In this document: in pieces, positions 2,535 to 53,800 of the stretch
Layout of the letters: every line of letters begins with the position of its first letter
How positions within the stretch are numbered: the stretch's first letter is position 1
NCBI GenBank assembly: GCA_023246355.1
Contig: JAHFIQ010000005.1
Span: forward strand, 3,086-67,085
Direction of reading: 5' to 3'
Length of the DNA stretch: 64,000 nucleotides
Source: Candidatus Uhrbacteria bacterium
GTDB taxonomy: Bacteria > Patescibacteriota > Patescibacteriia > UBA9934 > GWF2-40-263
Notes under the pieces: model-generated
Seen by the model: only the letters and a program-made list of their open reading frames with translations
The model's database searches: none
What the model was told of the DNA's origin: nothing
Made by a program: the position numbers and the translations under genes

Positions 2535-2922
2535 TGGTGGAGCTGGGGAGAATCGAACTCCCGTCTGGAAGGATTCGCACCGTGATGGTTCCAAGTTCAT
2601 TCACGCCTGATACCTTGCCACGCTCAAGGCGTGAAGCAATACGTGACAAGGAGCCGATCGCAACTCTTGAACATGAGAGATCGGTGACCTCATGTTCCAG
2701 CCTGATGATATAACACCCGACTGTTGGTTATCAGACGTCACCAACGCGGATGGCCCTCAGCTTACGCGAGGACAGGGGCAAAAGATGGAACGCGAAATGC
2801 ATTCTTGATCATTGCCATGACGTTGTTTGCAGTTGTCGTCGTGCACGGAAATATTTACGAGCTGCCGTACCGGCTCGACTTGATCACGGATGGTAGGCCT
2901 ACCATCGATACCGATCAGCCCC
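2535..2922 (-). ncRNA. ssrA: tmRNA (SsrA)
   Basis: On the minus strand the 5' end GGGGCUGAUCGGUAUCGAUGG pairs with the 3' end ...GGGAGUUCGAUUCUCCCCAGCUCCACCA. This gives a tRNA-Ala-like acceptor with a G3:U wobble, a T-loop GUUCGAUUC and an encoded CCA. Candidate tag ORF ...AFRVPSFAPVLA-UAA. Lies next to smpB. Confidence 0.8.
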
Positions 2923-2930
2923 ATCGCAGG

Positions 2931-2959
2931 AGTCTATGCCATTTTACGTTTTTGGTCAA
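2931..2959 (-). promoter_or_regulatory. Putative sigma70-like promoter for ssrA
   Basis: Minus strand reads TTGACC-17nt-TAGACT, about 9 nt upstream of the tmRNA 5' G. Confidence 0.35.
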
Positions 2960-2996
2960 TCGTGTAGAATCCTCCGCGGCTCTCACGGAGACTCTG

Positions 2997-4413: not shown

Positions 4414-6591
4414 TTATTTTAGCGTTTCAATGAAGGCGTTCACTTCCTGGGCTGATTCTGGATGCAGTGTTCGATACTGCACAGCGGTCTCGATCGCCTG
4501 TTGGATTCGGCCATCTGCGGCATAGGCAGCAGCGAGTTTGGGAAGAAGGGCATCGTTATTTGGTTCAACGGCTCGGGCGGACTCATAGAGAAACACAATT
4601 TTTGGGGTGTCTCCTACACCGATGTAGTAGTTAATCAGCCAATCAAAGGCTTGTGCGCTTGTGAGCTGCTCTCCCTGCTGAAGACTTTGAATAGCCAGAG
4701 GAGCGGCACGCGAAAGATCGCCATCACGAGCATAGATGAGCGCAAGGGTGAACAGGGCATCTGGGTGATTAGGCGCAAGGACGAGTGCGGCCTGAATGGT
4801 TTTTTCCGCCTCGTCGCGTAAACCATTCACCGTCTGCATATTAGATAGCACGATGAGCGCTTCCACCCGCGTGGGAGCCAGCTCGATGGCACGAGAGACA
4901 ATAGCGAAACTTTCTTGGCTGACAGGGGTGTTTGTTGCAACTGCATAAGAGAGTTCCAAACGCGCCGCCCGATACCAATTGTAGGCTCGAACAGGATGTC
5001 GACGCAGGGTTTTTTCGTAGGCCTGATGTGCCGATGAATAGATGGCAGTCGTGAGTCCTGGATCCTGGATGTTTCCCTTGATCTGTTGCTCCAAAGTATC
5101 GCTGTAGAGGTCAGCAAGCAAGGCAATGTCGTAGACAAAAAATGCCTGAGAGACACGATCAAGATGTTCGACTTGTTGCTGGGGACTCTCGTGATCGCGC
5201 GAGATGACTTGTCCGTACAGAGAGAATTGTGAGGCGGTTGGAATGAGTAAGAAGAAAATAATGATGAGAGGCACGACCAGACTCAGTGGACGTATCCACC
5301 TCCAGAGTGTGCCAGAACGGATGTGCTGTTGCGGAGGGATGGGTGCATCAAAGACCAAGGCCAAGAAAAAATAAAACGACACCAGAGGGACAATCGTATT
5401 GAAGACAAATAAATTTTGAACGAGATAGGCCACAAGAGCAGACATCAAGGCACAGGGTGGTATCCACGAGTCTTGTGATTTCCGTTTCAGAATCGTTCGG
5501 GTAATGACAAAGAGGTACAGGAGGTAGCTCAGGAGTGTGAAGATCCCACCGGTGGCAAGAATTTCTAAAATTTGATTATGCGGCTTATCTGGCCAGCTTC
5601 CAGATTCCTCATACAGATCGTTGGGATAATATCGGTCGGCGATGCGGTAGAAATTTTGGTGTCCGACGCCAAACCAGGGATCGTCCATCCAGCCGATCAC
5701 GGCGAGCCGCCAGTAGGTGAGACGGCTGCTCACACTGGCATCGGTATAGTGTGTCAGTCGATAGAGATCCGTTCCTTGTGTTGATGTGTATCTGAGGCTC
5801 AATCCGACAACAGAAAGGAGGAGACATCCCAGCACGAGACAGAGCCATGTTTTTCTTCGTTGCGCCTTTTGCGTGTGTGTGACCAAAGAGATCACCCCCC
5901 AGGTGACGCATCCAATCAGCACACCCAAGTAGGCTCCTCGTGTTTCAGAAGCCAGGATGCCAAGGCCTGTGGTAAGCGCACAGATAGCAAAGATCGACCT
6001 CCAGAGACGGGTTTTTTCCCGGACGAACATTCCGATCGAAAGAAAAAAAGGAATCATGAGGCTGGCCGCAAAGAACACCGGATTGCCGATCGTCGAAGAA
6101 GACCTCGTTTCAAACACATCGATGCTTGGGAGTAGGTTCAGATGTTGCAAAGCACCGATGGTTCCTACGAGCATGCCTACGCACAGGAACAAACGAACCA
6201 GGACGATACGGCTTGACTTCCAGGTTTGGAACAGGGTGACGAGCGCCAAAAAAAAGATAAAGAGGTGGTAACGCAAAAATAAGCCGTCAACGCGAGAGGC
6301 GTTTCCCAAAAAACTATTCCATGGGTCAACACCGACCGAGGCGGATAGACTCATGAGGCAAAAGTACAGCAGGAGCGACAGGGGAATGGGATGGGTCAAA
6401 ATAGAACGTCTTTCCGGCAGTCGTGAAAGATGAAAGACGAAGAAGGGAAGGGAGAGCTCAATCAAAAAAACGAAGAAAAAAATCTTTGTGCTGAGGAACG
6501 GAGCATACAAGGTTCGTAAAAAGATGAGAGGGGTGATGAGACAGAGTCCAAGGAGGAACGCGAGGCATTTTTCTGGAAAGGTGTGGGACAT
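4414..6591 (-). CDS. O-antigen ligase (Wzy_C)-like polytopic membrane protein with C-terminal TPR repeats
   Basis: N-terminal ~400 aa is multi-TM with a large periplasmic loop typical of the O-antigen ligase family. C-terminal ~250 aa shows TPR-like helical repeats. Confidence 0.55.
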   Translation of the reverse strand: MSHTFPEKCLAFLLGLCLITPLIFLRTLYAPFLSTKIFFFVFLIELSLPFFVFHLSRLPERRSILTHPIPLSLLLYFCLMSLSASVGVDPWNSFLGNASRVDGLFLRYHLFIFFLALVTLFQTWKSSRIVLVRLFLCVGMLVGTIGALQHLNLLPSIDVFETRSSSTIGNPVFFAASLMIPFFLSIGMFVREKTRLWRSIFAICALTTGLGILASETRGAYLGVLIGCVTWGVISLVTHTQKAQRRKTWLCLVLGCLLLSVVGLSLRYTSTQGTDLYRLTHYTDASVSSRLTYWRLAVIGWMDDPWFGVGHQNFYRIADRYYPNDLYEESGSWPDKPHNQILEILATGGIFTLLSYLLYLFVITRTILKRKSQDSWIPPCALMSALVAYLVQNLFVFNTIVPLVSFYFFLALVFDAPIPPQQHIRSGTLWRWIRPLSLVVPLIIIFFLLIPTASQFSLYGQVISRDHESPQQQVEHLDRVSQAFFVYDIALLADLYSDTLEQQIKGNIQDPGLTTAIYSSAHQAYEKTLRRHPVRAYNWYRAARLELSYAVATNTPVSQESFAIVSRAIELAPTRVEALIVLSNMQTVNGLRDEAEKTIQAALVLAPNHPDALFTLALIYARDGDLSRAAPLAIQSLQQGEQLTSAQAFDWLINYYIGVGDTPKIVFLYESARAVEPNNDALLPKLAAAYAADGRIQQAIETAVQYRTLHPESAQEVNAFIETLK

Positions 6592-16970: not shown

Positions 16971-17090
16971 CACCTGCAAAACTCGCGATCTTGCGTTTCA
17001 CGGGGCCCCACCACCTCCTCAACGTAGTTTTCACTACGTCTCGGAGGCTGGCTTCCCCGTTCAACGCAATCTCATCGAGTTTTGCAGGTG
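16971..17090 (-). repeat. 118-120-nt long-hairpin repeat element, copy a (inverted orientation)
   Basis: About 90% identical to the copies at 45063..45178 and 49926..50043. Perfect 15-bp terminal inverted repeat cacctgcaaaactcg/cgagttttgcaggtg. Confidence 0.7.
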
Positions 17091-39797: not shown

Positions 39798-41878
39798 ACA
39801 CTATGACCTATCAGACCAGTAAGATTTATGCTCGGATTGTCGTCTTCTTTTTGTTTTTGTCTTTGGCGTTTCCTGCGTCTGCCCTCACACCAGATGACGA
39901 ATATCTTTCCGAGCAATGGTATCTGACAAACATTGGTGCTGAGGACGCCTGGGAAACATCCACCGGCGACAACGAAGTCGTGGTGGCCGTGCTCGATACA
40001 GGTGTTGATTTGGATCATCCAGATTTGGAAGCGAACATCTGGGAGAACCCAGGGGAGGACCCAGACAACGGTAAGGACGATGATCACAATGGCTACGTCG
40101 ATGATGTGCATGGGTACGATTTTGTCGATGATGAGGGAGATCCGATGCCAAGTCTTGAAGGAAGTTTTGACACCGACGCGGTGAGTCATGCAACCGTGAT
40201 CGCGGGCATCATTGGCGCAGTTGGGGATAATGCAGACGGCATCGCGGGCATCAACTGGAATGTGAAAATTATGTCCGTGCGTATTTTGGATTCCGACGGT
40301 GTTGGCGATGCAGAGCTCGCTCGTGAAGGGGTGGAGTATGCAACAGAAAATGGCGCGGATGTGATCAATCTCAGTTTTACGGGTTTTGATGTGGATCCGG
40401 CTCTGCGTGATGCTGTTCGTGATGCCTACGATGCAGGCATCGTCGTTGTGGCAGCGATGGGCAACGCCGATGGGGGAGGCCTCGATATTGATGAGACGCC
40501 CATCTACCCAGCCTGCTACGGCGAGCATGCGGATGAGGATTGGATTTTGGGTGTGGCTGCGACTACGATCGATGATGAGAAAGCCGATTTTTCCAATTAC
40601 GGTTCCACCTGCACAGACATTTCTGCGCCAGGGGAAAATATTTTCAGTGCGGTGTTTCAAGATGACGACGTCCCAGAATTGGCCGAAGGCTATTATCAGG
40701 AGGGCTGGTCAGGGACCTCGATGGCCTCACCGATGGTTGCGGGAGCCGCGGCGTTGTTGTTGGCAAATTATCCGTCGCTCACGCCCGACGAGATCAAAAC
40801 GATCCTGCGTTTGTCTGCTGATCCGGTGATCGCGACCGGATCAGCGAAAGGAAAAATGGGTGCAGGTAGACTGAATATCGCAAACGCGATTGCGGCAGCG
40901 CCGTCGTTTGCGGACGTGGGAGAAGATTCCGTGTCCGCTGCTTCTGTGGAAGCATCGTCCAGTTACAGAATCGCGGTGGCTCCTGAGAGCGGTTCTCCGC
41001 CAACCGTTCGTGTGTTTGTGAATAGTGGAAGTGAGGTTGTCGCAGAGTTTGATGCCTATGACTCAGCGTTTACCGGTGGTGTGCGACTCACTATGGGAGA
41101 TGTCGATGGGGACGGGGAAGAAGAAATTGTCACTGTGCCAGGACCAGGCGGAGGACCGCAGGTGCGCATTTTCGATTTGGAAGGCAATCTCGAACGTGAC
41201 TTTTTTGCCTTTGAGGAGAGTTTACGATCAGGCTATTTTGTTGCGACCGGGGATGTGGATGGCGACGGCGTGGAAGAGATTGTGGTGAGTACAGATGAAG
41301 GCGGAAATGGTCGCGTAGGCATTTTCGACAAAGACGGGAATGAAGTGGAGGATTCGTTCATGCCGTTTTCCGATGTCAGTGGAAAGAGAAGTGTCCGTGT
41401 GGCCATGGGAGACGTTGATGGGGACGGGGAAGACGAAGTGATCGTGTGCTTAGGCTCAGGCCATGAGCCGATGATTCGTGTCCTTGAGTCTGATGGGGAT
41501 GTTGTGAGTGAGTTTTTGGCGTATGCTTCCACGTACACCAAGGGCGTGTTCGTTGCCTCGGGAGATTTGGATGGTGATGGCGATGATGAAATTGTCACAG
41601 GGACAGACAACGGTGGCGGGCCACAGGTACAGATCTATGATGGCGAGGGAAGCTGGCTGGGAACGTTTTTTGCCTATGACTCGGCGTTTCGTGGTGGGGT
41701 GCGTTTATCTGTCGGGAATCTTTCTGAGTGGCCAGGCGCGTCGATTATCACAGCCGCTGGTCCAGGTGGTGGGCCGCATATTCGTGTCTACAATGGTTAC
41801 GCGGAGTTGATTGGGACCTTTTTCAGCGACGAGGTGAGTGACCGCGACGGAATCAATTCAGGAGCGTGGGGATTATAA
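39791..41878 (+). CDS. Subtilisin-like (S8) serine peptidase with C-terminal FG-GAP-type repeats (paralog)
   Basis: VAVLDTGVDLDH, HATVIAGIIGA, GTSMASPMVAGAAALL, then GDVDGDGEEEIVTVPGPGGGPQVRIF repeats. Start may be ATG 39803. Confidence 0.7.
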   Translation: MVDTMTYQTSKIYARIVVFFLFLSLAFPASALTPDDEYLSEQWYLTNIGAEDAWETSTGDNEVVVAVLDTGVDLDHPDLEANIWENPGEDPDNGKDDDHNGYVDDVHGYDFVDDEGDPMPSLEGSFDTDAVSHATVIAGIIGAVGDNADGIAGINWNVKIMSVRILDSDGVGDAELAREGVEYATENGADVINLSFTGFDVDPALRDAVRDAYDAGIVVVAAMGNADGGGLDIDETPIYPACYGEHADEDWILGVAATTIDDEKADFSNYGSTCTDISAPGENIFSAVFQDDDVPELAEGYYQEGWSGTSMASPMVAGAAALLLANYPSLTPDEIKTILRLSADPVIATGSAKGKMGAGRLNIANAIAAAPSFADVGEDSVSAASVEASSSYRIAVAPESGSPPTVRVFVNSGSEVVAEFDAYDSAFTGGVRLTMGDVDGDGEEEIVTVPGPGGGPQVRIFDLEGNLERDFFAFEESLRSGYFVATGDVDGDGVEEIVVSTDEGGNGRVGIFDKDGNEVEDSFMPFSDVSGKRSVRVAMGDVDGDGEDEVIVCLGSGHEPMIRVLESDGDVVSEFLAYASTYTKGVFVASGDLDGDGDDEIVTGTDNGGGPQVQIYDGEGSWLGTFFAYDSAFRGGVRLSVGNLSEWPGASIITAAGPGGGPHIRVYNGYAELIGTFFSDEVSDRDGINSGAWGL

Positions 41879-41898
41879 ATTTGCTATACTGGTCGCAT

Positions 41899-42915
41899 AT
41901 GTCTCAACCTCTCACCTTTGAAAATAAGAATATCGTTGTGACCGGCGGTGCTGGATTTCTTGGCTCGCATTTGTGTGAGAGACTTTTGGCGGATGGGCAC
42001 CGTGTGGTATGCGTCGATAATCTTTCCACAGGTGAAGCTCGTAACATCGAAGCACTGTTGCAACACACGAACTTTCGATTTATCCGATTGGATATCAATC
42101 AACCATTTGAGATCGAGAATTTTCCTGAGCTGGCGGCCTTCAAATTCCCGTTTCAAGGCATTCAAGAGATCTATCATTTTGCGTGTCCAACGAGCATTAA
42201 AAATTTCGATCAGTTTAAAATTCAGACTCTCCTTTCTAGCTCATTGGGAAATTATTACGTGCTTGAATTGGCTAAAAAATATCGCGCGAAAATTTTACTG
42301 GCGTCCAGTTCCGTGGTGTATGGTTCAAGGCAGGATGGGGCGCCGCTGGTTGTCGAAACCGATCAGGGGATTGTCGACCATCTTTCTCCTCGTGCCTGTT
42401 ACGACGAAGGAAAGCGTTTTTCCGAGACCATGTTTGAAACCTACCGTCAGGTGCATAGCTTGGAGGTTCGGATCGCGAGAATTTTTCGCACCTACGGACC
42501 TCGCATGCCGTTGTTTGATGGCCAGTTGATTCCAGATTTTATTTTGAACGCGCTGGATGGAAAAGAACTGGTGATGTACGGTGGGCGCGAATTTCGCACG
42601 TCGCTTGCTTTTGTCACAGATGTGATCGATGGTCTGGTTCGGGTGATGGAATCCAAAGATGATCCAGGACCTGTGAATCTCGGCAGCGACGTCGACTTGG
42701 CGCTTGAGGATGTGGCAAAAAAAATCATCGCGATGACGGATTCTTCATCTCAGATCGTTGAAGGCGAAAGTATGATTTTTCTCTCAGAGCTTTCTTTGCC
42801 GCGCATTGACCGTGCCAAGGAACTTGGTTGGTTTCCCTTGGTGCGACTTGAAGATGGTCTGCGCAGAACGATTGAATACATGAAAGCGAATAAGATTTTG
42901 TATAGCAATTTATGA
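41899..42915 (+). CDS. NAD-dependent epimerase/dehydratase, UDP-glucuronate decarboxylase (UXS)-like
   Basis: IVVTGGAGFLGSHLCERL Rossmann motif and YxxxK-type SDR core, typical of the UXS/ArnA family. Confidence 0.65.
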   Translation: MSQPLTFENKNIVVTGGAGFLGSHLCERLLADGHRVVCVDNLSTGEARNIEALLQHTNFRFIRLDINQPFEIENFPELAAFKFPFQGIQEIYHFACPTSIKNFDQFKIQTLLSSSLGNYYVLELAKKYRAKILLASSSVVYGSRQDGAPLVVETDQGIVDHLSPRACYDEGKRFSETMFETYRQVHSLEVRIARIFRTYGPRMPLFDGQLIPDFILNALDGKELVMYGGREFRTSLAFVTDVIDGLVRVMESKDDPGPVNLGSDVDLALEDVAKKIIAMTDSSSQIVEGESMIFLSELSLPRIDRAKELGWFPLVRLEDGLRRTIEYMKANKILYSNL

Positions 42916-43607
42916 AGGTGATTGCCCTCATACCTGCCTACAACGAAGAGGCGACCATTGCAGAGGTGTTGCAAAAAACAAAACCGTTTGTGGACGGGAT
43001 GATTGTGGTCAATGATGGTTCATGGGATCGCACTTCACAGATCGCCCAAGGACAAGGAGCGGTAGTCGTGAGCCATGTGGTCAACCGTGGACTCGGCGCG
43101 GCGATCGGAACTGGTTTTGCGGCTGCCAAGTGTTTGGGGGCAGATGTGGTTGTGACACTTGATGCGGATGGTCAGCACGACCCCCATGAGATCCAAAAAT
43201 TTGTTGCGGCGATTGAGGCAGGGGCTGACGTGGTGATCGGGTCGCGTTTGCTTGAAGACACCTCCCCTTGCCAAGGGGAGGTCGGGAGGGGTCGTATGCC
43301 GCTTCATCGAAAAGTGGCCAACACGATTGGGAATCTTGTGACCTTTCTCTTGTTCGGTGCATGGGTGACAGACAGTCAATCTGGATTCCGTGCGTTCACG
43401 AGATTCGCCCTCTCAAAGATTGAGATCAAGACGAACCGCATGGAGGTTTCTTCAGAACTGATCGCCGAGGCGCGTCGTCATGAACTGAATCTCGTCGAAG
43501 TTCCGATCAAAGCGATCTATACCGACTATTCCCTTTCCAAGGGTCAGAATTTTTTTGTGGGAATCAAGACAGTACTGAAACTTGTTGTTCGACGCCTGAT
43601 GTCGTAG
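42912..43607 (+). CDS. Glycosyltransferase family 2 (Dpm1/GtrB-like)
   Basis: IPAYNEEATIAEVL...VVNDGSWDRT...DADGQHDP are GT2 motifs. Confidence 0.7.
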   Translation: MKVIALIPAYNEEATIAEVLQKTKPFVDGMIVVNDGSWDRTSQIAQGQGAVVVSHVVNRGLGAAIGTGFAAAKCLGADVVVTLDADGQHDPHEIQKFVAAIEAGADVVIGSRLLEDTSPCQGEVGRGRMPLHRKVANTIGNLVTFLLFGAWVTDSQSGFRAFTRFALSKIEIKTNRMEVSSELIAEARRHELNLVEVPIKAIYTDYSLSKGQNFFVGIKTVLKLVVRRLMS

Positions 43608-43611
43608 TTGT

Positions 43612-43947
43612 ATGGATGTGATACAAATTTTGATCGTCGTGTTTGCCCTGTTTGCCCTCTCACGCACGGTTTGGCAATTCAAAAAAGGGACGTTGTCGTT
43701 CGTCTGGCTTTTTTTCTGGATCTTGTTTTGGCTCGGTGTTGGATTCGTTGCTGTTCTTCCGCAGACCGCGGACATGGTAGCCCGCGTGGTTGGTGTTGGA
43801 AGAGGAGCTGATGTGGTGATCTATGTTTCTTTGCTCGCCTTGTTCTATTTGATCTTCCGCGTCTACATCAAAATCGAACAGGTAGAGAGAGAGGTCACGG
43901 GGCTGGTGCGGAAATTGGCGCTCGACGAACTGGAGGAGAAAAAATAA
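43612..43947 (+). CDS. DUF2304-like small membrane protein
   Basis: 111 aa with 3-4 TM helices, directly downstream of the GT2 gene. This pairing is common for DUF2304. Confidence 0.45.
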   Translation: MDVIQILIVVFALFALSRTVWQFKKGTLSFVWLFFWILFWLGVGFVAVLPQTADMVARVVGVGRGADVVIYVSLLALFYLIFRVYIKIEQVEREVTGLVRKLALDELEEKK

Positions 43948-43948
43948 C

Positions 43949-45049
43949 ATGATGCCTCGCGTTGCCATTATTTATCTCTGTTACAACAACCGCGCCTATC
44001 TCGAGGATGTTTTTGCTTCCGTCGAAAAATTGCAGTACCCCCGTGAGCAACTTGAGGTTGTGGTCGTTGATAATGATTCCAAAGACGGGAGTCCTGAGTG
44101 GTTGCGTGCCCACCAGGGCATCACGTTTTTACCAAGTGAAAAGAATCTTGGATTTGCTGAGGGGAATAATGTGGGCATCCGTCACGCGATGTTGCATGGC
44201 GCTCAGTATGTCTACTTGTTAAACGGCGACGCCAAGCTTCATCCGGAGGCGATCATGGAGGCGGTGAAACTGGCAGAGTCAGACCAAACCATTGGCTCTG
44301 TGCAGTCGAGAATCATGTTGTGGAAGCATCCGGATATTGTGAACGTCACCGGAGGCATGGTGCATTTTTTGGGCTTTGGTTTTGCCCGCGACAACGGAAA
44401 AGCTTGGGATGGGGTCAGGTCCGACTTCCGACTTTTGGGTTTAGATGTCCAGGATCAAAAAAGTCGGAAGTCGGACCTGACCCCATTTGAAATCGCCTAC
44501 AGCAGTGGAGCGGCTGTACTGTATCGAGCCTCTGTGTTGCAGAAGGTCGGCTTGTTGGATTCATTCCTCTTTCTCTATCACGAGGACCTTGAACTTGGTT
44601 GGCGTATCCGTCTGGCCGGTTACAAGAACGTGTTGGCCATCGATTCGATTGCGTATCATGACTACGAGTTCAAACGCTCCATCAAAAAGTTTTATTGGAT
44701 GGAACGCAATCGTGTGCTCGTCCATTGTTCTCATCTCACACTCAGGTCGCTCGCTCTGCTTGCGATTCCGATGCTTCTTGCTGAACTTGGACTCATCCTA
44801 TTTGCGATCAAGGGTGGCTGGATTCGCGAGAAGGTTCTCGTGTACGTGAGTCTTTTCAGTCCTCGGTCCTGGAGGTACGTCAAAACAAAACGTCGCGAGA
44901 GCCGGCTCTTGCGACGTGTCGGAGATCGTGAAATTGTGCGCCTGTGGACCGGGAAAATTGAGCATCAGGAAACCCAAAGTTTCATCGTGGATCGCTTGAT
45001 CAATCCATCTTCATCAGCGCTTTGGAAGGTTCTTCGAGCTTTCATTTAA
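43949..45049 (+). CDS. Glycosyltransferase family 2
   Basis: VAIIYLCYNNRAYLEDVF...VVVVDNDSKDGS...NLGFAEGNNVG. Confidence 0.65.
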   Translation: MMPRVAIIYLCYNNRAYLEDVFASVEKLQYPREQLEVVVVDNDSKDGSPEWLRAHQGITFLPSEKNLGFAEGNNVGIRHAMLHGAQYVYLLNGDAKLHPEAIMEAVKLAESDQTIGSVQSRIMLWKHPDIVNVTGGMVHFLGFGFARDNGKAWDGVRSDFRLLGLDVQDQKSRKSDLTPFEIAYSSGAAVLYRASVLQKVGLLDSFLFLYHEDLELGWRIRLAGYKNVLAIDSIAYHDYEFKRSIKKFYWMERNRVLVHCSHLTLRSLALLAIPMLLAELGLILFAIKGGWIREKVLVYVSLFSPRSWRYVKTKRRESRLLRRVGDREIVRLWTGKIEHQETQSFIVDRLINPSSSALWKVLRAFI

Positions 45050-45062
45050 TATTCTAGCTGGC

Positions 45063-45178
45063 CTCCCAAAATCGATGAGATTACCTTGAACGGGGAAGCC
45101 AGCCGCCGAGACGTAGGTAAATCCTACGTTGAGGAGGTGGCGGGGCCCCGTGAAAGGTAAGATCGCGATTTTGGGAGG
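45063..45178 (+). repeat. 118-nt long-hairpin repeat element, copy b
   Basis: cctcccaaaatcg...cgattttgggagg terminal stem. About 88% identical to copies a and c. Sits in the convergent intergenic gap between two GT2 genes. Confidence 0.7.
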
Positions 45179-46018
45179 TCAGCTTTTTTGTCCCAGCCAC
45201 TTGAGGGTGTACTTGAGCCAACTCATGATGTGAATCCGTGTGGTGCGGTTGTGAAGGATTTTATCGATCGTGCCTTTTCCTTTTGCTGAATCTTTACTAT
45301 ACGCATGATAGAGCACCGCCTCGGGAAGATAATACACCGGGCGGCCATGGAGCCAGCTTGTCCGACACAGGTCAACATCTTCGTAATACATGAAGTAGCG
45401 ATCATCAAATCCGCCTAGTTCGCGGAACAGGTTGCCTTCGATCATGAAGGCAGACCCTTGCACCCAATCAACCATCCGACGCTTGTTGTGATCAAAATCC
45501 TCCATGAGGAATTGCTGTTTGTGTGACGTCACTCGGTTTTTTTTGAAGAGCGATGTTCGTTGCATGATGGGGGTGAGCACCGAGGGAAATCGTCGGCAGG
45601 TTTCTTGAAGTCGTCCATCCATGTACAAAATTTTTGGCGCCGCAATGCCGACCTTTGGGTGGTTTTTGAGAAAGCGATACAGTTTCATCAGAACCTCCGG
45701 ATCATCCACCCGAGTATCTGGATTCAAAAAGAAATAATAGTCCGAGTCGACTTCCTCTGCCCCACGGTTACACGAGCGACCAAATCCCACGTTCACGTTG
45801 CGAAGGATGACGATCGCTTGGGGAACATGTTTTTTTACCAGGGCATGTGCGTCGATTTTTGTCGATGCGTTGTCGACCAAAATAAATCGCACCTTGAGCG
45901 GTGTTGCCTCAAGGAGTTTTTGAACAGAGTGAAGACACGCCTCATCCAGACGATTGGCAGAAACCGTGACGATGGCGATGTCGACGCGTTCTTTTGGGTA
46001 GACGCTTGTTACTTCCAC
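45179..46018 (-). CDS. Glycosyltransferase family 2
   Basis: IAIVTVSANRLDEACLHSVQKLL...ILVDNAS...NVGFGRSCNRG. Confidence 0.65.
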   Translation of the reverse strand: MEVTSVYPKERVDIAIVTVSANRLDEACLHSVQKLLEATPLKVRFILVDNASTKIDAHALVKKHVPQAIVILRNVNVGFGRSCNRGAEEVDSDYYFFLNPDTRVDDPEVLMKLYRFLKNHPKVGIAAPKILYMDGRLQETCRRFPSVLTPIMQRTSLFKKNRVTSHKQQFLMEDFDHNKRRMVDWVQGSAFMIEGNLFRELGGFDDRYFMYYEDVDLCRTSWLHGRPVYYLPEAVLYHAYSKDSAKGKGTIDKILHNRTTRIHIMSWLKYTLKWLGQKS

Positions 46019-46905
46019 AGATTGGATTTTATCTGCACGAGATCAGTGAGTGCTCCAATCCCGATCACAAGAGGTCGAAGGGCGTAAATGATCCACGCCT
46101 GCCAGGGCGGACACCACTTAGCAAAGTACCGCGCCATGGAGAGAGAAAACTGTGTTTGCTTCCACCGGGATGATTGTTGCTTGAATGATTGTCCGATCAA
46201 ATCGGTGCAGGAAACAGTGGCATCGTACCAGATACGAAATCCTGCTTGGCGAACGCGTTTGCAAAAGTCGACTTCCTCAAACCAGATAAAAAACGTTTGT
46301 GCATCGAGCACGCCGATCTTTTCCATCACATCACGTCGAAACGCAAAAAACGATCCTCGCACTTGATCGACATTCTGCGAAACGTTGTAGTCGAAATCTT
46401 TTGCCAGATATTGATTCACAACATCGGGAAACAGATGGGGGAGTTTGAGCAGGATGGCGAGCTGATCGCGAAATTGAGGATCACGGCGCACGGAAGCAAC
46501 CACGGATCCCCGTCCGACCTGGTCGTCCGGGCGGGCATTTTCACGAACCAGTTTTACACCCATCACACCGATGTCTTTGTGCGTCGTTAGCGTCTGATAG
46601 GTGTGATCGACCACGTCCTTGCCCATCATCATGTCAGGGTTGAACAGCACGAGCACCTCGCCCTTGGCCATCTTGAGTCCTTGATTGCAGGCATAGGCAA
46701 AACCACGATTGGCATCGTTTTGAATGAGATGCACAGAGGGAAAATACGTTCGAATCATCGTGGCCGTGCCGTCGCTTGATCCGTTATCAATCACAAGCAC
46801 CTCGAATGCTTCACGTGTTTGCATGGAAAACAGATGTGAAAGATTGTCTTTCAGCTGTTCACGGACATTCCAGGAAACGATGATGAGAGAAACCTTCGGT
46901 TGCAT
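46009..46905 (-). CDS. Glycosyltransferase family 2
   Basis: VSLIIVSWNVREQLKDNLSHL...VLVIDNGSSDGT...NRGFAYACNQG. Confidence 0.65.
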   Translation of the reverse strand: MQPKVSLIIVSWNVREQLKDNLSHLFSMQTREAFEVLVIDNGSSDGTATMIRTYFPSVHLIQNDANRGFAYACNQGLKMAKGEVLVLFNPDMMMGKDVVDHTYQTLTTHKDIGVMGVKLVRENARPDDQVGRGSVVASVRRDPQFRDQLAILLKLPHLFPDVVNQYLAKDFDYNVSQNVDQVRGSFFAFRRDVMEKIGVLDAQTFFIWFEEVDFCKRVRQAGFRIWYDATVSCTDLIGQSFKQQSSRWKQTQFSLSMARYFAKWCPPWQAWIIYALRPLVIGIGALTDLVQIKSNLWK

Positions 46906-47100: not shown

Positions 47101-47931
47101 GTGGGCTGGTCAGAGATGGCTCTGAGGTGTTCTGTGAACGTGTTCATTGACCAGATGGTGGATTTCAAGAATCGTTTCTTCCGGCTCGGTGGGACGATGG
47201 CGCTTTTCCTCAACCTCCTCGGTGATGACGAGCTGATGGAGCACATGATCAAGAGCGCTGAGGAGAAGGCTAACGCCAACCCGTTCGAGCAGACGGTGGA
47301 CGAGCAGATCGCCGCGCTGCGGGCTCAGAATGAGGCTGGCAGCTGGGGCATCACCGAGGACGTGTTCGTCCGGCTCGCGCAGACCGCGCCTGCTTGGCCC
47401 AAGGGTAAGGACGCCTACCGCTCGCTCCGTATCCGTTTCGGCGAGGGGGACGAGGGAGTGGCACTCACCTTCGAACGACATGCTGAGGCCATGAAGCGCG
47501 TCCACGACCCGAAGTTCTGGCGGTGGGAATTGCTTCACTCCGGAACGGTGCCCTATCAGGGCAAGTCGGTCGAGCGCCTGCGGCTCTTGAACGGCAATCA
47601 GAGCCACAAGGCCGTCGTCGAGTGGGTAATCATCAGCGACCTGTCAGCCAACCGCACGCGGAAGGACATCACTTCCGTGCGAAGTGTCCAGTCCCTCGCG
47701 GACGAAGGCCTCGTACTGGCGTGGATGTTCCCGAAGCGGGCGCAGGCGATCGACTACGACAAGTGGTGCGCCTGGTACTGCGGAGGCTACGAGTCAAACG
47801 TCCCCGAGCACGGCGAGGAGTGGCAGCGCGTGGTGGTCGTGGGCCGCGACACCGTTTCCGGTAGGGTCCACCTGCACGCCAGCTGGCGGAGCGGCGACAA
47901 CTCGGGCTACTCCGTTCCTCCCCTCGGGTAG
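47101..47931 (+). CDS. DGR target (variable) protein; C-terminal VR
   Basis: Its last 131 bp (47798..47928) is the VR copy of the TR at 48292..48422. No signal peptide. N-terminus unverified. Confidence 0.6.
   Translation: MGWSEMALRCSVNVFIDQMVDFKNRFFRLGGTMALFLNLLGDDELMEHMIKSAEEKANANPFEQTVDEQIAALRAQNEAGSWGITEDVFVRLAQTAPAWPKGKDAYRSLRIRFGEGDEGVALTFERHAEAMKRVHDPKFWRWELLHSGTVPYQGKSVERLRLLNGNQSHKAVVEWVIISDLSANRTRKDITSVRSVQSLADEGLVLAWMFPKRAQAIDYDKWCAWYCGGYESNVPEHGEEWQRVVVVGRDTVSGRVHLHASWRSGDNSGYSVPPLG
47798..47928 (+). repeat. DGR variable repeat (VR)
   Basis: 131 bp aligned to the TR with 15 substitutions, all opposite TR adenines. Ends 3 nt before the target stop codon. Confidence 0.9.
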
Positions 47932-47951
47932 CGCTCGGAACTTGGCAGCTT

Positions 47952-48010
47952 GGAGCTCGGCAGCCCTTGGACTTCAATCCTTGGTGCTGCCGGCTCCTTT
48001 TCATTTTGTT
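47952..48010 (+). terminator. GC-rich hairpin plus T-tract immediately downstream of VR (terminator / DGR-associated stem-loop)
   Basis: ggagctcggcagc ... gctgccggctcc (12 bp, 1 bulge) followed by ttttcattttg, 20 nt after the stop. Confidence 0.5.
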
Positions 48011-48291
48011 ATAATAGTTTTGGAGAGTAGGCCAGTGCGCCGGTGTTTACGGATGCCGGTCGCCGAAATCTCTTGCAATCCCAATATGCCGTCAGAATCC
48101 AGCCTTCGCTTGAAGGTAGGAGTGTGCGGTGCGGATTGGCGAGCACTCCGCATTTCATTTTGGAACCAGCCTTCGCTGAAGCTACGGCCGGCAGGCCAGT
48201 CGAGCGTGCGAACGGCGAAGGGTTCCGCATAAAATTCAGGGTATGGATGCGTCTGTACCCAGTGTCATGGAAGAATGGAATGTGAAGGGAG

Positions 48292-48422
48292 ACGTCCCCG
48301 AGAACGACGAGGAGTGGCAGAACGTGGTGGTCGTGAACCGCAACACCGATTCCGGTAAGGTCAACCTGAACGCCAACTGGCGGAGCAACGACAACTCGGG
48401 CTACTCCGTTCCTCCCATCGGG
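48292..48422 (+). repeat. DGR template repeat (TR)
   Basis: AAC-rich (at least 9 AAC codons in frame). Invariant partner of the VR. Lies inside a spurious 69-aa ORF. Confidence 0.9.
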
Positions 48423-48466
48423 AGTTCTCATCAAGGCAAAGGGGCGCCATGAAGCGCTCCTTCATG

Positions 48467-48862
48467 CTATCCGACGACTTTCATCCATCCGCCGAGCATC
48501 CTGCCCGTGTCTATCAGTTTTGATTCCATGTTTAGATACTGAACGTTCGTGATGCATTTGCAGTCCTTACACAGCCGTACCAGCAACTTCGTGGTATCGA
48601 CCTTAGCACTCGCTTCTTTTAGTCTGACGAGCTTCTCTGTTGGAATCGACGTCGCGGCGGCACCAAGAAGGAGTTCAAGTATCGAAAGAAGATATCTGGA
48701 ACAGGTTTCGCCAAGCGTATAGCGTTGGGGTTTCGGAAATTTTTTCATCACTTCGTTCCACAGGACATAAGCATCATAAAGCGTATGTACGATTGGAATA
48801 TCGCCAGGTCCTCCGTTCAACAACGTTCGTTCTTCCCGATTGAGTCGGGGGGGGGGTGTCAC
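48467..48862 (-). CDS. avd: Accessory variability determinant (Avd)-like four-helix-bundle protein
   Basis: 131 aa with KFPKPQRYTLG...LGGWMK features of Avd. Divergent from the RT and overlapping its 5' end. Confidence 0.6.
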   Translation of the reverse strand: MTPPPRLNREERTLLNGGPGDIPIVHTLYDAYVLWNEVMKKFPKPQRYTLGETCSRYLLSILELLLGAAATSIPTEKLVRLKEASAKVDTTKLLVRLCKDCKCITNVQYLNMESKLIDTGRMLGGWMKVVG

Positions 48863-49844
48863 TATTCATAAGGCAGAAGCTCGTGATTTATTTGATCGTT
48901 TGGTTTCGATTGAAAATTTGTTTTTGGCGTGGAGACGTTTCTGCAAAGGAAAACGGAGTCGTCATGATGTGATGGTATTCGAACGGAGGCTGGAAGACAA
49001 TCTTTTTGCTATCCGTGAGGAACTTCTTTTCGGATTGTATCAGCACAGTCGGTATGAGCGATTCACCATTCACGATCCGAAAGAGCGAACAATCCACAAA
49101 GCGATCATCAAGGATCGGGTTGTTCACCAAGCTATCGTGAACATTATTGAGCCACTATTCGAGAGAGGTTTCATTTTCGACAGCTTTTCTTGTCGTGTTG
49201 AGAAAGGAACACATGCTGCAGTACGAAGGCTGCGAATGTTTTTGCATCGAGCATCCCAAAACGATACGAAAACGGTCTATGCGCTGAAATGCGATGTGCG
49301 GAAGTTTTTTGACTCTGTAAACCATTTGGTTCTGCTAGAGCTGCTTGCCAAGCGGATTGAAGACCCTGCGACTATCAGGGTCCTTAAAAATATTATCAGT
49401 AGCTTTTCTGTTTTACCTCATACAGGTATTCCGCTTGGGAATCTCACGAGCCAGTTATTTGCAAATATCTATCTTCACGAACTCGACTGGTTCGTGAAAC
49501 AGAAACTTCGTGTCAGATATTATGTCCGTTATTGTGATGATTTTATTATGCTGTCGCTGTCCAAGACAGAAGCAGTGGTTTTGATTGAACAAGTTGACGC
49601 ATTCCTGCAGGAGCGTCTTAAGGTCCAACTCCATCCCAACAAGGTTCACGTTCGCACTTGGACGCAGGGTGTAGACTTTCTTGGTCACGTTCTTCTTCCA
49701 CGAGCAACTATTCTTCGTCCAACAACCGCTCGTCGTGTCATTGAACGTGCTACGAGAGAAAACGCTACGTCTTACCTTGGTTTGTGTGTCCACGCCGATG
49801 CCTACGAAGTCCGTAGAACGATCATGAATAAAACAAACATCTAG
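48840..49844 (+). CDS. DGR reverse transcriptase
   Basis: RT motifs 1-7. YCDD catalytic motif. Motif 4 reads LGNLTSQ (the I/LGxxxSQ DGR hallmark). 334 aa, TTG start. Confidence 0.8.
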   Translation: MSRGGGVTIHKAEARDLFDRLVSIENLFLAWRRFCKGKRSRHDVMVFERRLEDNLFAIREELLFGLYQHSRYERFTIHDPKERTIHKAIIKDRVVHQAIVNIIEPLFERGFIFDSFSCRVEKGTHAAVRRLRMFLHRASQNDTKTVYALKCDVRKFFDSVNHLVLLELLAKRIEDPATIRVLKNIISSFSVLPHTGIPLGNLTSQLFANIYLHELDWFVKQKLRVRYYVRYCDDFIMLSLSKTEAVVLIEQVDAFLQERLKVQLHPNKVHVRTWTQGVDFLGHVLLPRATILRPTTARRVIERATRENATSYLGLCVHADAYEVRRTIMNKTNI

Positions 49845-49856
49845 CTGCTTCAAATG

Positions 49857-49910
49857 CCGTGGCACGTCGTTCCCGCCAAAGGCGGGCGCGGCGCGAACGA
49901 CGTGCCGTGG
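49857..49910 (+). other. Strong compound stem-loop after the RT gene
   Basis: 16-bp outer stem ccgtggcacgtcgttc/gaacgacgtgccgtgg (2 G-U in RNA) enclosing ccgcc-aaa-ggcgg. No U-tract follows. Confidence 0.5.
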
Positions 49911-49925
49911 TATAGTACAACGAGA

Positions 49926-50043
49926 CCTCTGAAAAACTCGATGAGATTGCGATGCGCGGGGAAGCCAGCCTCCGAGACGTCGAAAACTACGTTGAGGAGG
50001 TGGCGGGGCCCCGCAAGTCGCAAGATCGCGAGTTTTGCAGAGG
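49926..50043 (+). repeat. 118-nt long-hairpin repeat element, copy c
   Basis: cctctgaaaaactcg...cgagttttgcagagg terminal stem. About 90% identical to copies a and b. Confidence 0.7.
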
Positions 50044-50057
50044 TCCCAATCGTTTTT

Positions 50058-51227
50058 ATGGACAAGGCTCACCTCACCATCGCCCATGTGGTCTGCACCT
50101 ATCCACCGTATCGCGGAGGGATGGGGAATGTTGCGCATGAATATGTCGAGCGACTCAGAGCTCGGGGCTACAACGTGCACGTGTTTACCATTCAAGATAC
50201 AGAAATAGATGATGACCCGCGCTATGTGCACCGCATTCCCGGCATCATCCAAATTGGAAATGCCGGAGTATTACCGTCGCTATTTCATCGCCTGTCTGGT
50301 TTTGATCTGGTTCATCTTCACTATCCTTTTTTTGGCGGCGCAGAACCGGTCATTGTGAGAAAAGCCATGACGCAGGATCAAGGACTTGTCATGACCTATC
50401 ACATGGATAATTTCGGTGCAGGTGTCAAAGGCGCGCTGTTCAGTGCCCATCGTCGCCTGTTATTTCCGTGGCTCGTGAATCGCGTGGACAGAATTTTGGT
50501 GAGCTCCATGGATTATGCCAAACATTGTGCGCTGGCTGAATTGGATGTGATGGACAGAATCGAAGAACATCCCTTTGGCGTGGATCTGGAGCGGTTTCAT
50601 TCAGGCGTGGAGCAGGAGTTGCGTGTGCGTCACCACATCAAACAAGACGTACCCGTTTTGTTGTTTGTGGGTGGGCTTGATGCCGCGCATGAGTTCAAAG
50701 GACTTTCCGTTTTGTTTGAGTCACTCAGTCATCTTTTGAATCAAGAGTGGCATCTGGTGATCGTCGGGGACGGGGCACTCAAGGAAACGTATCGAGAACA
50801 GGCACGCGAGAGAGGGCTCGGCGATCGTGTGACGTTTGCAGGAGCTGTCTCGCAGGATGATCTCCCGCGTTATTACCGTCTGGCGACGGTGCACCTGTTT
50901 CCTTCAACAAAACGCGCGGAGTCCTTTGGATTAGTCGCCCTGGAAGCTGCTGCCTCTGGAATTCCTTCCATCGCGTCAGATCTTCCGGGCGTCAGAACCG
51001 TTGTGCGTGACGGAGATACGGGACTGCTCGTTTCGCCTGGGGATGTTGAGTCACTGAAAAAAGCCATCCTCACCCTGCTTGAACAACCAGACTTGCGATC
51101 ACGCCTTGGTCTTTCAGCGCGAGTGAATGCACAGGCGCACTATCACTGGGAGCCGCTCATAGATCGACTGGAGGCGACGTATGATTCTGTCTTGGGGCAG
51201 CAAGCAAAGCGTCACTATCGAGTATGA
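50058..51227 (+). CDS. Glycosyltransferase family 4
   Basis: Start MDKAHLTIAHVVCTYPPYRGGMGN. GT4 C-terminal domain ESFGLVALEAAASGIPSIASDLPG. Confidence 0.7.
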   Translation: MDKAHLTIAHVVCTYPPYRGGMGNVAHEYVERLRARGYNVHVFTIQDTEIDDDPRYVHRIPGIIQIGNAGVLPSLFHRLSGFDLVHLHYPFFGGAEPVIVRKAMTQDQGLVMTYHMDNFGAGVKGALFSAHRRLLFPWLVNRVDRILVSSMDYAKHCALAELDVMDRIEEHPFGVDLERFHSGVEQELRVRHHIKQDVPVLLFVGGLDAAHEFKGLSVLFESLSHLLNQEWHLVIVGDGALKETYREQARERGLGDRVTFAGAVSQDDLPRYYRLATVHLFPSTKRAESFGLVALEAAASGIPSIASDLPGVRTVVRDGDTGLLVSPGDVESLKKAILTLLEQPDLRSRLGLSARVNAQAHYHWEPLIDRLEATYDSVLGQQAKRHYRV

Positions 51228-52453
51228 AGATCGGGATCGTTTCAAATCTCTATCCACCGGATGCCCGTGGCGGAGCAGAGCTCGTGGCACAGCGCGTGGC
51301 CGATGCTCTGTATGAACGCGGTCACGAAGTGTTTGTGCTCAGCACGCAGCCCTACGACGGCCTGCGATCGTTGTTTGCCCGCGTGCGAGAGAGAACATTG
51401 GAAGTCGTGTATCGTTTTTTTCCACTGAACGTCTACTACGTCAGAAACGACGGGCGCGTGTGGTTTCCCATTCGCCTGCTTTGGCATCTCATCGATCTTT
51501 TCAGTCCATGGGCGAGAGCCGCCATGGCTCACGTTATTGCTGATGAACATCCAGAGGTGATCATCACTCACAACTTGAAAGGCATCGGTGTGGGAATCGC
51601 TCGGGAGATTCAGTTGCGTGGCGTGCCACATATCCACACGCTGCACGATGTACAGCTCTCTGTGCCCAGTGGTTTGCTGATGGCGGGAGAGGAACAGTCC
51701 TTCCTGAATCGATCTTTTTTGCGCCGATGGTATGAGGCAGCGGTACGGCGACAGATGGGGACACCGGATCTGGTTCTCTCACCATCGAAATTTTTGGCAG
51801 ACTTTTATCTGGAGCGGGGGTTGTTTTGTGACACACGCTTGGAAGTTCTTGCCAATCCTCTGCCACCAGGAAATCGACCCGAGCTTCCCAAAACACGACC
51901 GCAGATGAAGACGAAATTTTTATTCGTGGGTCAGCTGGAAGCACACAAGGGCATTCTCTTGCTGTTGGATGCGCTCGATCAACTCGGGGACGTGGAAATG
52001 CATTTCGCCGGTGAGGGGTCGCTTGCTGAGTTTGTGAGTGAACGCGCTGTGCGTGATCCTCGCGTGACGTATCACGGGTTTGTCTCACTCGATAACTTGG
52101 TCAAGCTGTTGGAAAATATCGACGCGGTCGTGCTTCCATCGATCTGTTACGAAAATTCTCCAACCGTTATTTATGAAGCATTCTTGATTGGTGTGCCCGT
52201 GATCGCATCGAGGATCGGTGGCATTCCAGAGATTGTGAAGGAGGAACTTTCAGGACTCCTTGTCACTCCGGGCAGCGTGCAGGAATTGGTCGCTGCCATG
52301 CGTCGGATTCACAACGAACGGGAGTTGTGGTGGGAGAGAACACAATCGATTCGTGCGTATGCCCTGCAATTCGGATTAGACAATTATGTCAGACGTTTGG
52401 AAGCGCTTATAGAGGAAGTGGTGAAAAAAGAAAACTCACCTGTTGGTGAGTAG
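51224..52453 (+). CDS. Glycosyltransferase family 4
   Basis: MKIGIVSNLYPPDARGGAELV...ENSPTVIYEAFLIGVPVIASRIGGIPEIV. Confidence 0.7.
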   Translation: MKIGIVSNLYPPDARGGAELVAQRVADALYERGHEVFVLSTQPYDGLRSLFARVRERTLEVVYRFFPLNVYYVRNDGRVWFPIRLLWHLIDLFSPWARAAMAHVIADEHPEVIITHNLKGIGVGIAREIQLRGVPHIHTLHDVQLSVPSGLLMAGEEQSFLNRSFLRRWYEAAVRRQMGTPDLVLSPSKFLADFYLERGLFCDTRLEVLANPLPPGNRPELPKTRPQMKTKFLFVGQLEAHKGILLLLDALDQLGDVEMHFAGEGSLAEFVSERAVRDPRVTYHGFVSLDNLVKLLENIDAVVLPSICYENSPTVIYEAFLIGVPVIASRIGGIPEIVKEELSGLLVTPGSVQELVAAMRRIHNERELWWERTQSIRAYALQFGLDNYVRRLEALIEEVVKKENSPVGE

Positions 52454-52900: not shown

Positions 52901-53800
52901 TCACTTTCCTCTGCTTATTCTTCCTACCACAGATCGGTCGATACCAACAAGCTTAGCGATTTCTGTCGTTAAATATCCGCATCGCAACCGAGCAAAAACA
53001 ATCCCTTCGTTTCGTTTAGTCTTTGTCGTGGCGTCGGCAAAAATTTCCTCAAGAGTCGGTCGACCAACGATCCGTTCTTCTCGACGGTACTCCTTGAGTT
53101 CCTCTACTCCATTCGTTTTCTCCCAAATCCAACTCACGAATTGAGGACTGCCTAAGAGGAAACCGTTTGAAACGTCATCGTAAGGGTTTCTTGCATCAGA
53201 CCCTTCATCGACAAACTGTCGGTACTCTTGCTGGGCTTCCTGTTTTTTTTTCGAAAAATGAGTCAGGAGCCAATCTACGCGCAGCCACTCAGGCGAGGTG
53301 GACGCACCACAGGTTGCACGATAACTACTCCATTTCCATTCTTTTGGGTGTTTTACAAGGTGAGCGCGAACAGGATTCAAAACGATATAACGAGCCACTT
53401 CCAGAAGGTATGTCTCTTTTTCAATGACGAACGCCTTGTATCTACCTTGGAAGAGGTGTCCGACACGTCCGTGTACTGCGTTAAACCACTGAGAGTAGTT
53501 TCCGTTGAGATCTCGCATGGCAATCGCAAGGTTTGCGTCGAGTGTCTCCAAAAGCAAGTGATAGTGGTTTCCCATGAGACAATACGCGTGGCACAGGAGG
53601 TTATGTGTCTTACAAGTATCCTGAAGCCATCTCAAAAATCGACGTCGGTCATGATCGGTCAAAAAAATATCTTGTTTGGCGTTTCCTCGAGCAATGACGT
53701 GATAGAGCGCACCTGGATATTCAATACGTAAAGGTCTTGACATAGATTTTTTAATGATTTGTTTAGTTTCTTCTGGGAACATAAAACCCCCAAAATTCAA
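52901..53800 (-). CDS. REP-associated tyrosine transposase (RAYT; IS200/Y1 HUH family)
   Basis: YHVIARGN...HAYCLMGNHYHLLLE (HuH)...GHLFQGRYKA (catalytic Tyr region). True start is probably MSRPLRIEYPG. Confidence 0.7.
   Translation of the reverse strand: MNFGGFMFPEETKQIIKKSMSRPLRIEYPGALYHVIARGNAKQDIFLTDHDRRRFLRWLQDTCKTHNLLCHAYCLMGNHYHLLLETLDANLAIAMRDLNGNYSQWFNAVHGRVGHLFQGRYKAFVIEKETYLLEVARYIVLNPVRAHLVKHPKEWKWSSYRATCGASTSPEWLRVDWLLTHFSKKKQEAQQEYRQFVDEGSDARNPYDDVSNGFLLGSPQFVSWIWEKTNGVEELKEYRREERIVGRPTLEEIFADATTKTKRNEGIVFARLRCGYLTTEIAKLVGIDRSVVGRISRGK

Follow-up and report, generated by a model that had tools for sequence, protein, structure and literature searches.

Conserved structured leader upstream of the template repeat in a Patescibacteria-type diversity-generating retroelement

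Thousands of diversity-generating retroelements (DGRs) have been catalogued. The one described here lies in 64,000 nucleotides of contig JAHFIQ010000005.1 from a Candidatus Uhrbacteria bacterium (assembly GCA_023246355.1, positions 3,086 to 67,085 of the forward strand), a stretch referred to below as the window. It combines a target (variable-protein) gene ending in a variable repeat (VR), a template repeat (TR), the accessory gene avd and a reverse transcriptase (RT) gene. Both the enrichment of DGRs in bacteria of the candidate phyla radiation (CPR, or Patescibacteria) and the gene order of the window as their norm have been published (PMC5758913; PMC8144416). This architecture, termed B3, consists of TR-(avd)-RT with avd on the reverse strand, and most CPR VR classes were left unassigned (Wu et al. 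2018, PMC5758913). A Patescibacteria-restricted clade of cellular DGRs (clade 2) has targets usually without recognisable domains, the VR domains of which are predicted to be new C-type-lectin variants (Roux et al. 2021, PMC8144416).

The locus in the window is very probably a chromosomal DGR of this CPR type, ordered as target with a C-terminal VR (plus strand), TR (plus), avd (minus) and RT (plus). Gene order and strands are the same as in the published CPR elements, with no other accessory gene (B3, PMC5758913; clade 2, PMC8144416); the window DGR is likewise chromosomal, its best RT homologues are nearly all named from Patescibacteria or Uhrbacteria, and its target has no recognisable domain (PMC8144416). 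The cassette itself shows no difference from CPR DGRs and is an ordinary member of this well-described class; since it matches the published descriptions in all respects tested, it is nothing new in kind. The potentially new part may be a structured leader upstream of TR, together with its pairing with the TR 3' flank.

One comparison for such an RNA is that of the Bordetella phage DGR. There, TR117-129 pairs with spacer positions Sp47-56, and Sp A56 primes through its 2'-OH; the chain runs on into Sp59-70, and the duplex between this segment and the 11 nt that immediately precede TR is the 'cPRT Stop'; and an Avd-binding stem-loop follows just after TR (bioRxiv 10.1101/2023.10.23.563531).

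The repeat pair, the cassette genes and related loci

The cassette comprises the following features:

47134..47931, plus strand: target (variable-protein) gene, 265 residues (MNVFIDQ...), with a probable GTG start at 47134 as in its homologues
47798..47928, plus strand: VR, the 131 nt with which the coding sequence of the target ends, right before the TAG stop codon at 47929..47931
48292..48422, plus strand: TR
48467..48862, minus strand: avd (accessory variability determinant), up to 131 residues, transcribed away from the RT gene
48840..49844, plus strand: DGR reverse transcriptase (RVT_1, 4.1e-21), 334 residues if TTG 48840 is the start codon, which is uncertain

Pairwise alignment of 47780..47945 with 48274..48439 showed that VR and TR match without gaps over 131 nt and differ at 15 positions. 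The TR base is A at all 15, opposite nine G, five C and one T in VR. The probability that 15 of 15 mismatches fall on A by chance is 3e-11 (hypergeometric; 32 A among the 131 nt of TR). All 32 TR adenines occupy position 1 or 2 of the target codons and none occupies position 3, and most of the variable TR sites are AAC codons. The homology breaks off sharply at both borders, divergence beginning directly after GGG, and the final 35 nt contain a single difference (A/C at 48417/47923). A third copy of the repeat was not found in the window: degenerate TR patterns (A to N) matched the known pair only, with 0 matches expected by chance, and the window therefore holds a single VR.

An earlier note on this DNA, made from the sequence alone, had described a 131-bp VR/TR pair with 15 differences, all at TR adenines; realignment and tabulation of the mismatches agree, with 0 differences on a TR C, G or T, and the codon examples and TR translation given there are correct. 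The note was right to place a non-coding TR copy downstream of VR, but the distance from the end of VR to the start of TR is 363 nt rather than 360 bp. It also placed VR correctly at the 3' end of its gene, the start of which is most likely the GTG at 47134, as in homologues, and not 47101; some annotations call an alternative ATG at 47116. The identification as a DGR is borne out by the RT and Avd genes adjoining the repeat pair, by the position of VR at the C-terminus of an intact gene, and by the recurrence of this layout in other loci.

The RT, Avd and target genes are all intact. The RT contains the motifs LGNLTSQ (residues 199-205) and YCDD (231-234) as well as D152. Its top match among the sequences of solved structures in the PDB is 8ub7_A (1.9e-46, residues 14-302), compared with 8e-21 for the best group II intron RT. 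Residues K29, F66, R74, I76, D138, G182, Q187 and D215/D216 of 8ub7_A correspond to K38, F75, R83, I85, D152, G200, Q205 and D233/D234 of the window RT; these conserved positions include catalytic residues and residues in contact with the template. Since K29, F66, R74, I76, D138, I181, G182 and Q187 of 8ub7_A match the residues given in the preprint for the Bordetella phage RT (bRT), 8ub7 was taken as bRT; LGNLTSQ of the window RT aligns to its IGSLTSQ. Comparison with NCBIfam returned group II intron and defence RT models, all below threshold. There are 6939 RT homologues at E<=1e-20, and the best ones are nearly all named Patescibacteria or Uhrbacteria.

Avd, an accessory protein that most DGRs have, though not all, was assigned to PF22296 (bAvd) in Pfam (3.2e-12; 47.3 bits, above the cut-off of 40) and matched NF033474 (DivGenRetAVD) in NCBIfam at 1.2e-18 and 67 bits, under the curated cut-off of 80; a search of its sequence against the PDB gave no match. 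The 5' ends of the avd and RT open reading frames (ORFs), on opposite strands, overlap by 23 nt (48840..48862) across a run of nine G. In Avd this run is read as PPP, which homologues keep, and in the RT as GGG. An annotation in which the RT begins at ATG 48969 loses conserved N-terminal residues that align to bRT. Directly after the RT stop codon stands an inverted repeat (49854..49913; 24-nt arms, 83% complementary, 12-nt loop), which may be the RT terminator.

The target has 191 homologues at E<=0.001, and apart from one Lentisphaerae label the source names given for them are Patescibacteria, Uhrbacteria or Parcubacteria. No Pfam domain was found in the target or in its 191 homologues, and no NCBIfam family for the target. 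An alignment of 56 family members shows good conservation in the main part of the protein, whereas variation among the final 45 residues coincides exactly with the positions that AAC codons of TR specify; the hypervariability of the family is confined to VR. A confident structure model of the target shows a helical N-terminal part and a C-terminal domain. The latter is modelled as a divergent C-type-lectin-like fold, an assignment that is probable but weakly supported and not established. A Foldseek search of the model against the PDB gave no significant match, and the nearest known comparators are the DGR variable proteins with a C-type-lectin fold, Mtd (1yu0), TvpA (2y3c) and TaqVP (5vf4). 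At least 191 small unannotated Patescibacteria proteins thus form one target family with a possible lectin-like variable domain. In every DGR locus the G+C content of the target gene outside VR is 62-68%, compared with 42-45% for the RT gene (54% in L016, labels as explained below) and 43-52% for the flanks. This contrast between target and RT recurs across genomes, and the loss of adenines in VR alone is insufficient as its cause.

Related loci, labelled L001-L035, were fetched from genomes and metagenomes and by exact-protein look-up, and each was screened for RT, Avd, target and A-biased repeats. Besides the window, eight independent loci have the same layout and the same target family. Five more distant loci with this layout, which encode different target proteins, were reached through RT homologues of 55-66% identity. 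The position and strand of avd are identical in all 13 other loci. Mismatches between VR and TR fell on TR adenines as follows:

L004: 16/16, same target family
L005: 14/14, same target family
L006: 18/18, same target family
L015: 17/18, same target family
L016: 18/18, same target family
L021: 18/18, same target family
L022: 13/13, same target family
L027: 11/11, same target family
L031: 12/14, distant locus
L032: 21/21, distant locus
L033: 23/26, distant locus
L034: 11/11, distant locus
L035: 15/29, distant locus (VR/TR pair at 2880-3010 and 3361-3491)

The loci that keep the bias have 85-100% of their mismatches at TR adenines, and these include four of the five distant ones (L031-L034). The 14 of 29 non-adenine mismatches in L035 suggest that its cassette is decaying. 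In L034 a Transposase_20 gene (2841-3575) lies between avd and RT, and the adenine bias is still 11/11. The public records of L004 and L005 bear the title 'uncultured Gammaproteobacteria bacterium', probably because the bins were mislabelled, the DGR genes and target family being otherwise named nearly only from Patescibacteria, and the single Lentisphaerae, Nitrosomonadaceae and Methylomirabilis names among the target and RT homologues may reflect similar mislabelling. At the end of the 1.5-kb contig of L002 (1321-1476), a TR with intact adenines joins the VR 3' flank (CTCGGGTAGCGCTCGGAACTTGG...) and not its own flank. This junction was considered as a homing intermediate and rejected; it is most likely an assembly cross-over at a 28-nt exact repeat in a low-coverage contig.

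A structured leader and the RNA that may contain it

The interval from the target stop codon to TR was aligned in nine loci, and the five distant loci were then added to give 14. The following elements were recognised in and around it:

47952..48007, plus strand: terminator-like hairpin of the target gene (47952..47997), then TTTTCATTTT; DNA fold -19.4 kcal/mol, z -2.8
48007..48015, plus strand: extended -10 element TGtTATAAT, candidate promoter of the TR RNA, with a predicted start at ~48021..48023
48022..48291, plus strand: structured leader of ~270 nt, with P1, P2, strand a, P3 and two variable hairpins in the P3 loop
48137..48149, plus strand: strand a (UGGCGAGCACUCC), predicted by RNAalifold to form a long-range helix with strand a'
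48150..48161 with 48272..48283, plus strand: helix P3, in which 8 of 12 pairs show double changes
48421..48433, plus strand: strand a' (GGAGUUCUCAUCA), starting at the last two nt of the TR/VR homology
48439..48462, plus strand: hairpin (9-bp stem), separated by 16 nt from the end of TR and by 5 nt from the avd stop codon

An equivalent GC stem and T-run precede the promoter in the other loci. The sequence TGnTA(A/T)A(A/C)T stands 6-7 nt ahead of GGARAGTAGG in the nine aligned loci (as TGtTATAAT in the window and TGnTAAACT in others of the nine), and a comparable -10 box is present in L033, L034 and L035, consistent with the -10 element being a promoter of a TR-containing RNA. A simple promoter and terminator scan missed both the leader promoter and the target terminator because they fall outside its -35/-10 and short-loop rules; it was the comparison of loci that revealed them.

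The nine-locus alignment showed that the leader is composed of long invariant blocks and hairpin inserts of variable length. RNAalifold, applied to the leader, TR and 60 nt beyond, predicted 102 pairs, 37 of them with compensatory changes. In these nine loci 95.8% of cells were paired, compared with 42-48% when the 3' partners were slid by 1-3 columns, and the 37 double-change pairs compare with 6-14 in the slid controls; on no measure did any of 500 shuffles match the observed value. Across all 14 loci, 92.9% of the cells in the leader helices were paired (41-51% in slid controls), 43 of 73 pairs showed double changes (14-20 in slid controls) and the covariation score was 0.516 (0.12-0.17).

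Each DGR locus has a single copy of the leader motif, in every case immediately upstream of TR. The motif was never found in loci that contain a target alone or elsewhere in the window, and a search of viral contigs gave 0 matches. No Rfam family was found for it: at gathering thresholds the window yielded only the transfer-messenger RNA (tmRNA), and at E<=10 the region 47900..48900 gave only a chance-level hairpin-ribozyme match on the minus strand inside avd. A literature search found no description of a conserved 270-nt leader in CPR DGRs, which is no proof of absence, Paul et al. 2017 lying outside its coverage. Taken together, the comparison of loci supports the leader well as a conserved structured RNA, and any function for it is inferred. 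One public annotation lists a gene (L001:7110-7319) for a 69-residue ORF (48243..48452) that spans TR. This ORF was rejected as a real gene: its frame is merely inherited from VR, and its first part lies within the structured leader.

The helices nearest to TR have a distinctive arrangement. Pairing between strands a and a' is retained in 14 of 14 loci through compensatory changes; the column pair 157/492 is GC in 10 loci and AU in four, 158/491 is AU in 10 and GC in three, and 156/493 is CG in four and UA in four. Strand a runs unbroken into the 5' strand of P3, and the 3' strand of P3 stops 8 nt ahead of TR. Both helices are kept by compensatory changes even in loci with unrelated targets. 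The hairpin at 48439..48462 also shows a compensatory change (GGAG/CUCC to GAAG/CUUC), and in L004 it has a GAAA tetraloop. Its counterpart in distant loci is an entirely different GC stem, and a U-rich run follows it in most loci; by its sequence it looks like a terminator, possibly a bidirectional one. No RNA element hidden in the antisense strand of avd was detected, third-codon-position entropy being flat along the gene and also near TR; without extra conservation at these positions, there is no sign of further RNA elements there.

From this helix geometry, a stand-alone DGR RNA of ~440 nt is proposed, with cDNA synthesis starting at ~G48420 and stopping at P3. The promoter at 48007..48015, following the target terminator, would drive an RNA from ~48022 to ~48465, composed of the 270-nt leader, TR and a 3' tail with the terminator-like hairpin. 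The a:a' duplex would correspond in position to the template:primer duplex of the phage RNA, with strand a as the primer strand, and P3 would take the place of the phage 'cPRT Stop' duplex. RT-Avd would begin cDNA synthesis at ~G48420, primed from a 2'-OH or a nick near the invariant CUCC|GCA (48146..48152); the enzyme would then copy TR, misincorporate opposite adenines and halt at P3. The cDNA would replace VR through homology, possibly assisted by an array of CTYGG pentamers that follows VR, and homing would thereby give a small protein, probably of C-type-lectin-like fold, a variable face for ligand binding.

In general terms, the tentative reading is that CPR-type (B3) DGRs use a circularly permuted, retron-like stand-alone RNA in which the primer strand and stop duplex, and probably also the helices that bind RT, lie upstream of TR; the chances of this are put somewhat below even. 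If true, a permuted RNA would explain why avd can be inverted and why TR precedes avd in nearly all CPR DGRs. It would also allow a direct test of which ribonucleoprotein features are essential, and provide a compact RNA for engineering.

The CTYGG array, orphan targets and genomic surroundings

The sequence following VR contains a further conserved element:

47924..47986, plus strand: CTYGG array, 7 pentamers in 63 nt, spaced 7-14 nt and starting inside the last VR codons

The background frequency of CTYGG in the window is 0.0029 per nt. Related DGR loci have kept the array (4-8 copies), and so have distant ones whose targets are unrelated, with eight copies in L032 and L034. It is also present just after the stop codons of targets in L007, L008, L011 and L013, which lack a complete cassette. 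It may be a protein-binding array; that it is the DNA recognition element for homing, in the role of the site for initiation of mutagenic homing (IMH) and the downstream DNA element, is a guess. A conserved hairpin or cruciform of the phage type was not found after VR in the alignment (consensus energy -6.6 kcal/mol, covariation term +0.19). Only ~34% of DGRs have a GC-rich inverted repeat in this place (PMC5758913).

Orphan targets, with no RT, avd or TR within 3-6 kb, were found in eight loci (L007-L010, L013, L024, L026 and L028). In L011, a 27-residue remnant of the RT C-terminus (5011-5091) lies 220 nt after the target. When the VR-like regions of orphans were compared with foreign TRs, mismatches fell on TR adenines in 13 of 14 cases in L013, 17 of 21 in L011 and 19 of 26 in L007; because they are mostly at TR adenines, these VRs were once diversified. 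Either the orphans have lost their cassette or a DGR at another site of the genome acts on them. Orphan targets that bear both the marks of diversification and a CTYGG array thus have a bearing on how often DGRs are lost or act in trans. L007, where the target is an orphan, also encodes a 162-residue 23S_rRNA_IVP protein, an Avd-like four-helix bundle (1561-2049), between KhpA and TrmD.

The DGR is flanked by genes for GT2/GT4 glycosyltransferases and epimerases (41866..46905 and 49854..52453). The window has three copies of a palindromic intergenic repeat (~115 nt, 82-89% identity), at 16974..17087 (minus strand), 45068..45180 (plus) and 49929..50045 (plus), the last copy just downstream of the RT gene. 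A contig from another sample departs near this repeat and has DUF4178 instead of the GT4 genes downstream of the RT; the repeat may be a recombination or mobile-element boundary. Elsewhere in the window there are a tmRNA gene (2535..2922, minus strand; tag ANNVMAMIKNAFRVPSFAPVLA) and an IS200-like Y1 transposase gene (52901..53800, minus strand), and no tRNA genes were found in its 64 kb.

Alternative explanations and comparison with known systems

That the repeat pair is an ordinary partial duplication or gene-conversion tract, with an adenine bias arising from chance or composition, is so improbable that it can practically be set aside. The bare existence of a direct repeat is all that favours it, set against the value of 3e-11 for 15 of 15 mismatches at adenines, the restriction of adenines to codon positions 1 and 2, the adjoining RT and avd genes, and the same bias in other independent loci. 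A rather unlikely but more serious alternative is a genuine DGR that is now silent or nearly so, its VR having diversified formerly and since become fixed, which would make the locus a relic. The target protein is on record in 11 contigs from at least five samples, and VR is identical in all 11; L001, L002 and L003 are identical to the window across VR. Within the protein collection, the 90%-identity cluster has only one other member, a start-codon variant, and contains no VR variants. Decay of the cassette is moreover common in the family, as seen in the orphan targets, the RT remnant of L011, the transposase of L034 and the non-adenine mismatches of L035. As the consensus VR is identical everywhere, the differences between VR and TR show past retrohoming only, and the 'direct sequence evidence of mutagenic retrohoming' announced in the earlier note holds for past events and no further. 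On the other hand, the window has kept RT, Avd, TR, leader RNA and promoter in intact and conserved form, the lack of mismatches outside the adenines speaks against a long period of neutral drift after the last homing, and assemblies give a consensus only, in which minority variants are hidden.

The leader could also have a role other than priming. It might be a 5' untranslated region, a regulatory RNA acting on TR transcription or as avd antisense, or an unrelated small RNA, with priming and stop downstream of TR as in the Bordetella phage; this is regarded as doubtful. A published survey of DGR RNAs, which used 40 nt upstream and 100 nt downstream of TR, describes both Avd-binding stem-loops and upstream/downstream duplexes for DGRs, CPR members among them, and the hairpin 16 nt after TR in the window sits at the position of the phage Avd-binding stem-loop and is followed by only a weak U-tract. 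Clear U-runs do follow the hairpin in distant loci, however, and the leader shows compensatory pairing with the 13 nt that abut the 3' end of TR, while P3 closes 8 nt before TR, a geometry of a:a' and P3 that is hard to explain for an unrelated RNA. The motifs are kept in DGRs with unrelated targets and only beside TRs, and the third codon positions of avd show no extra constraint near TR.

Several points nevertheless weigh against the overall reading of the locus as a DGR with such an RNA. VR is the same in the 11 contigs, which are consensus assemblies, with no sign of ongoing diversification. The covariation comes from 14 sequences, several of them closely related. The phage-like downstream elements that the survey reports in some CPR DGRs may conflict with an upstream location; with only 40 nt taken upstream, the survey would have missed strand a, ~145 nt upstream of TR. 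The weak U-tract makes read-through into antisense avd possible in the window, and the promoter, both ends of the transcript and the sites of priming and stopping are predictions.

If the leader does prime and stop cDNA synthesis, the CPR DGRs would represent a naturally permuted form of the one DGR RNA that has a known structure. The window shares with the Bordetella phage BPP-1 DGR (mtd-avd-TR-brt; PMC6182149) the adenine-specific transfer from TR to VR and the pair of Avd and RT, and the alignment of its RT with bRT extends over 289 residues and shows the key ones to be kept. Both have a stem-loop of ~9 bp just 3' of TR, in the window as the predicted hairpin at 48439..48462, and both have a duplex at the 3' end of TR with a stacked second duplex, the other strand of which lies just upstream of TR. 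Unlike in the phage, avd of the window is inverted and downstream of TR, and a separate promoter and terminator seem to serve the TR RNA. The partner strands of the two duplexes are located ~130-145 nt upstream of TR in the window (48137..48161), whereas those of the phage lie in a 140-nt spacer downstream; by this analogy, the window RNA would be a circular permutation of the phage RNA. The TR/VR homology ends 2 nt into the duplex in the window, compared with 17 uncopied nt in the phage, and VR is followed by the CTYGG array instead of the GC hairpin of the phage.

The same order of elements recalls the retron non-coding RNA, which has an msr-msd organisation, inverted repeats a1 and a2, and a branch guanosine whose 2'-OH serves for priming (PMC8867640). 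As in retrons, a 5' strand is followed by a structured RNA, a template and a 3' strand that pairs with the 5' strand beside the start of reverse transcription, and there is a conserved nucleotide (CUCC|G) at the junction, where branch priming in the window would be by analogy only. In contrast to retrons, the window RT is assigned to the DGR clade, retron RT models scoring far lower, and its product would be used for homing into a gene rather than retained as multicopy single-stranded DNA (msDNA).

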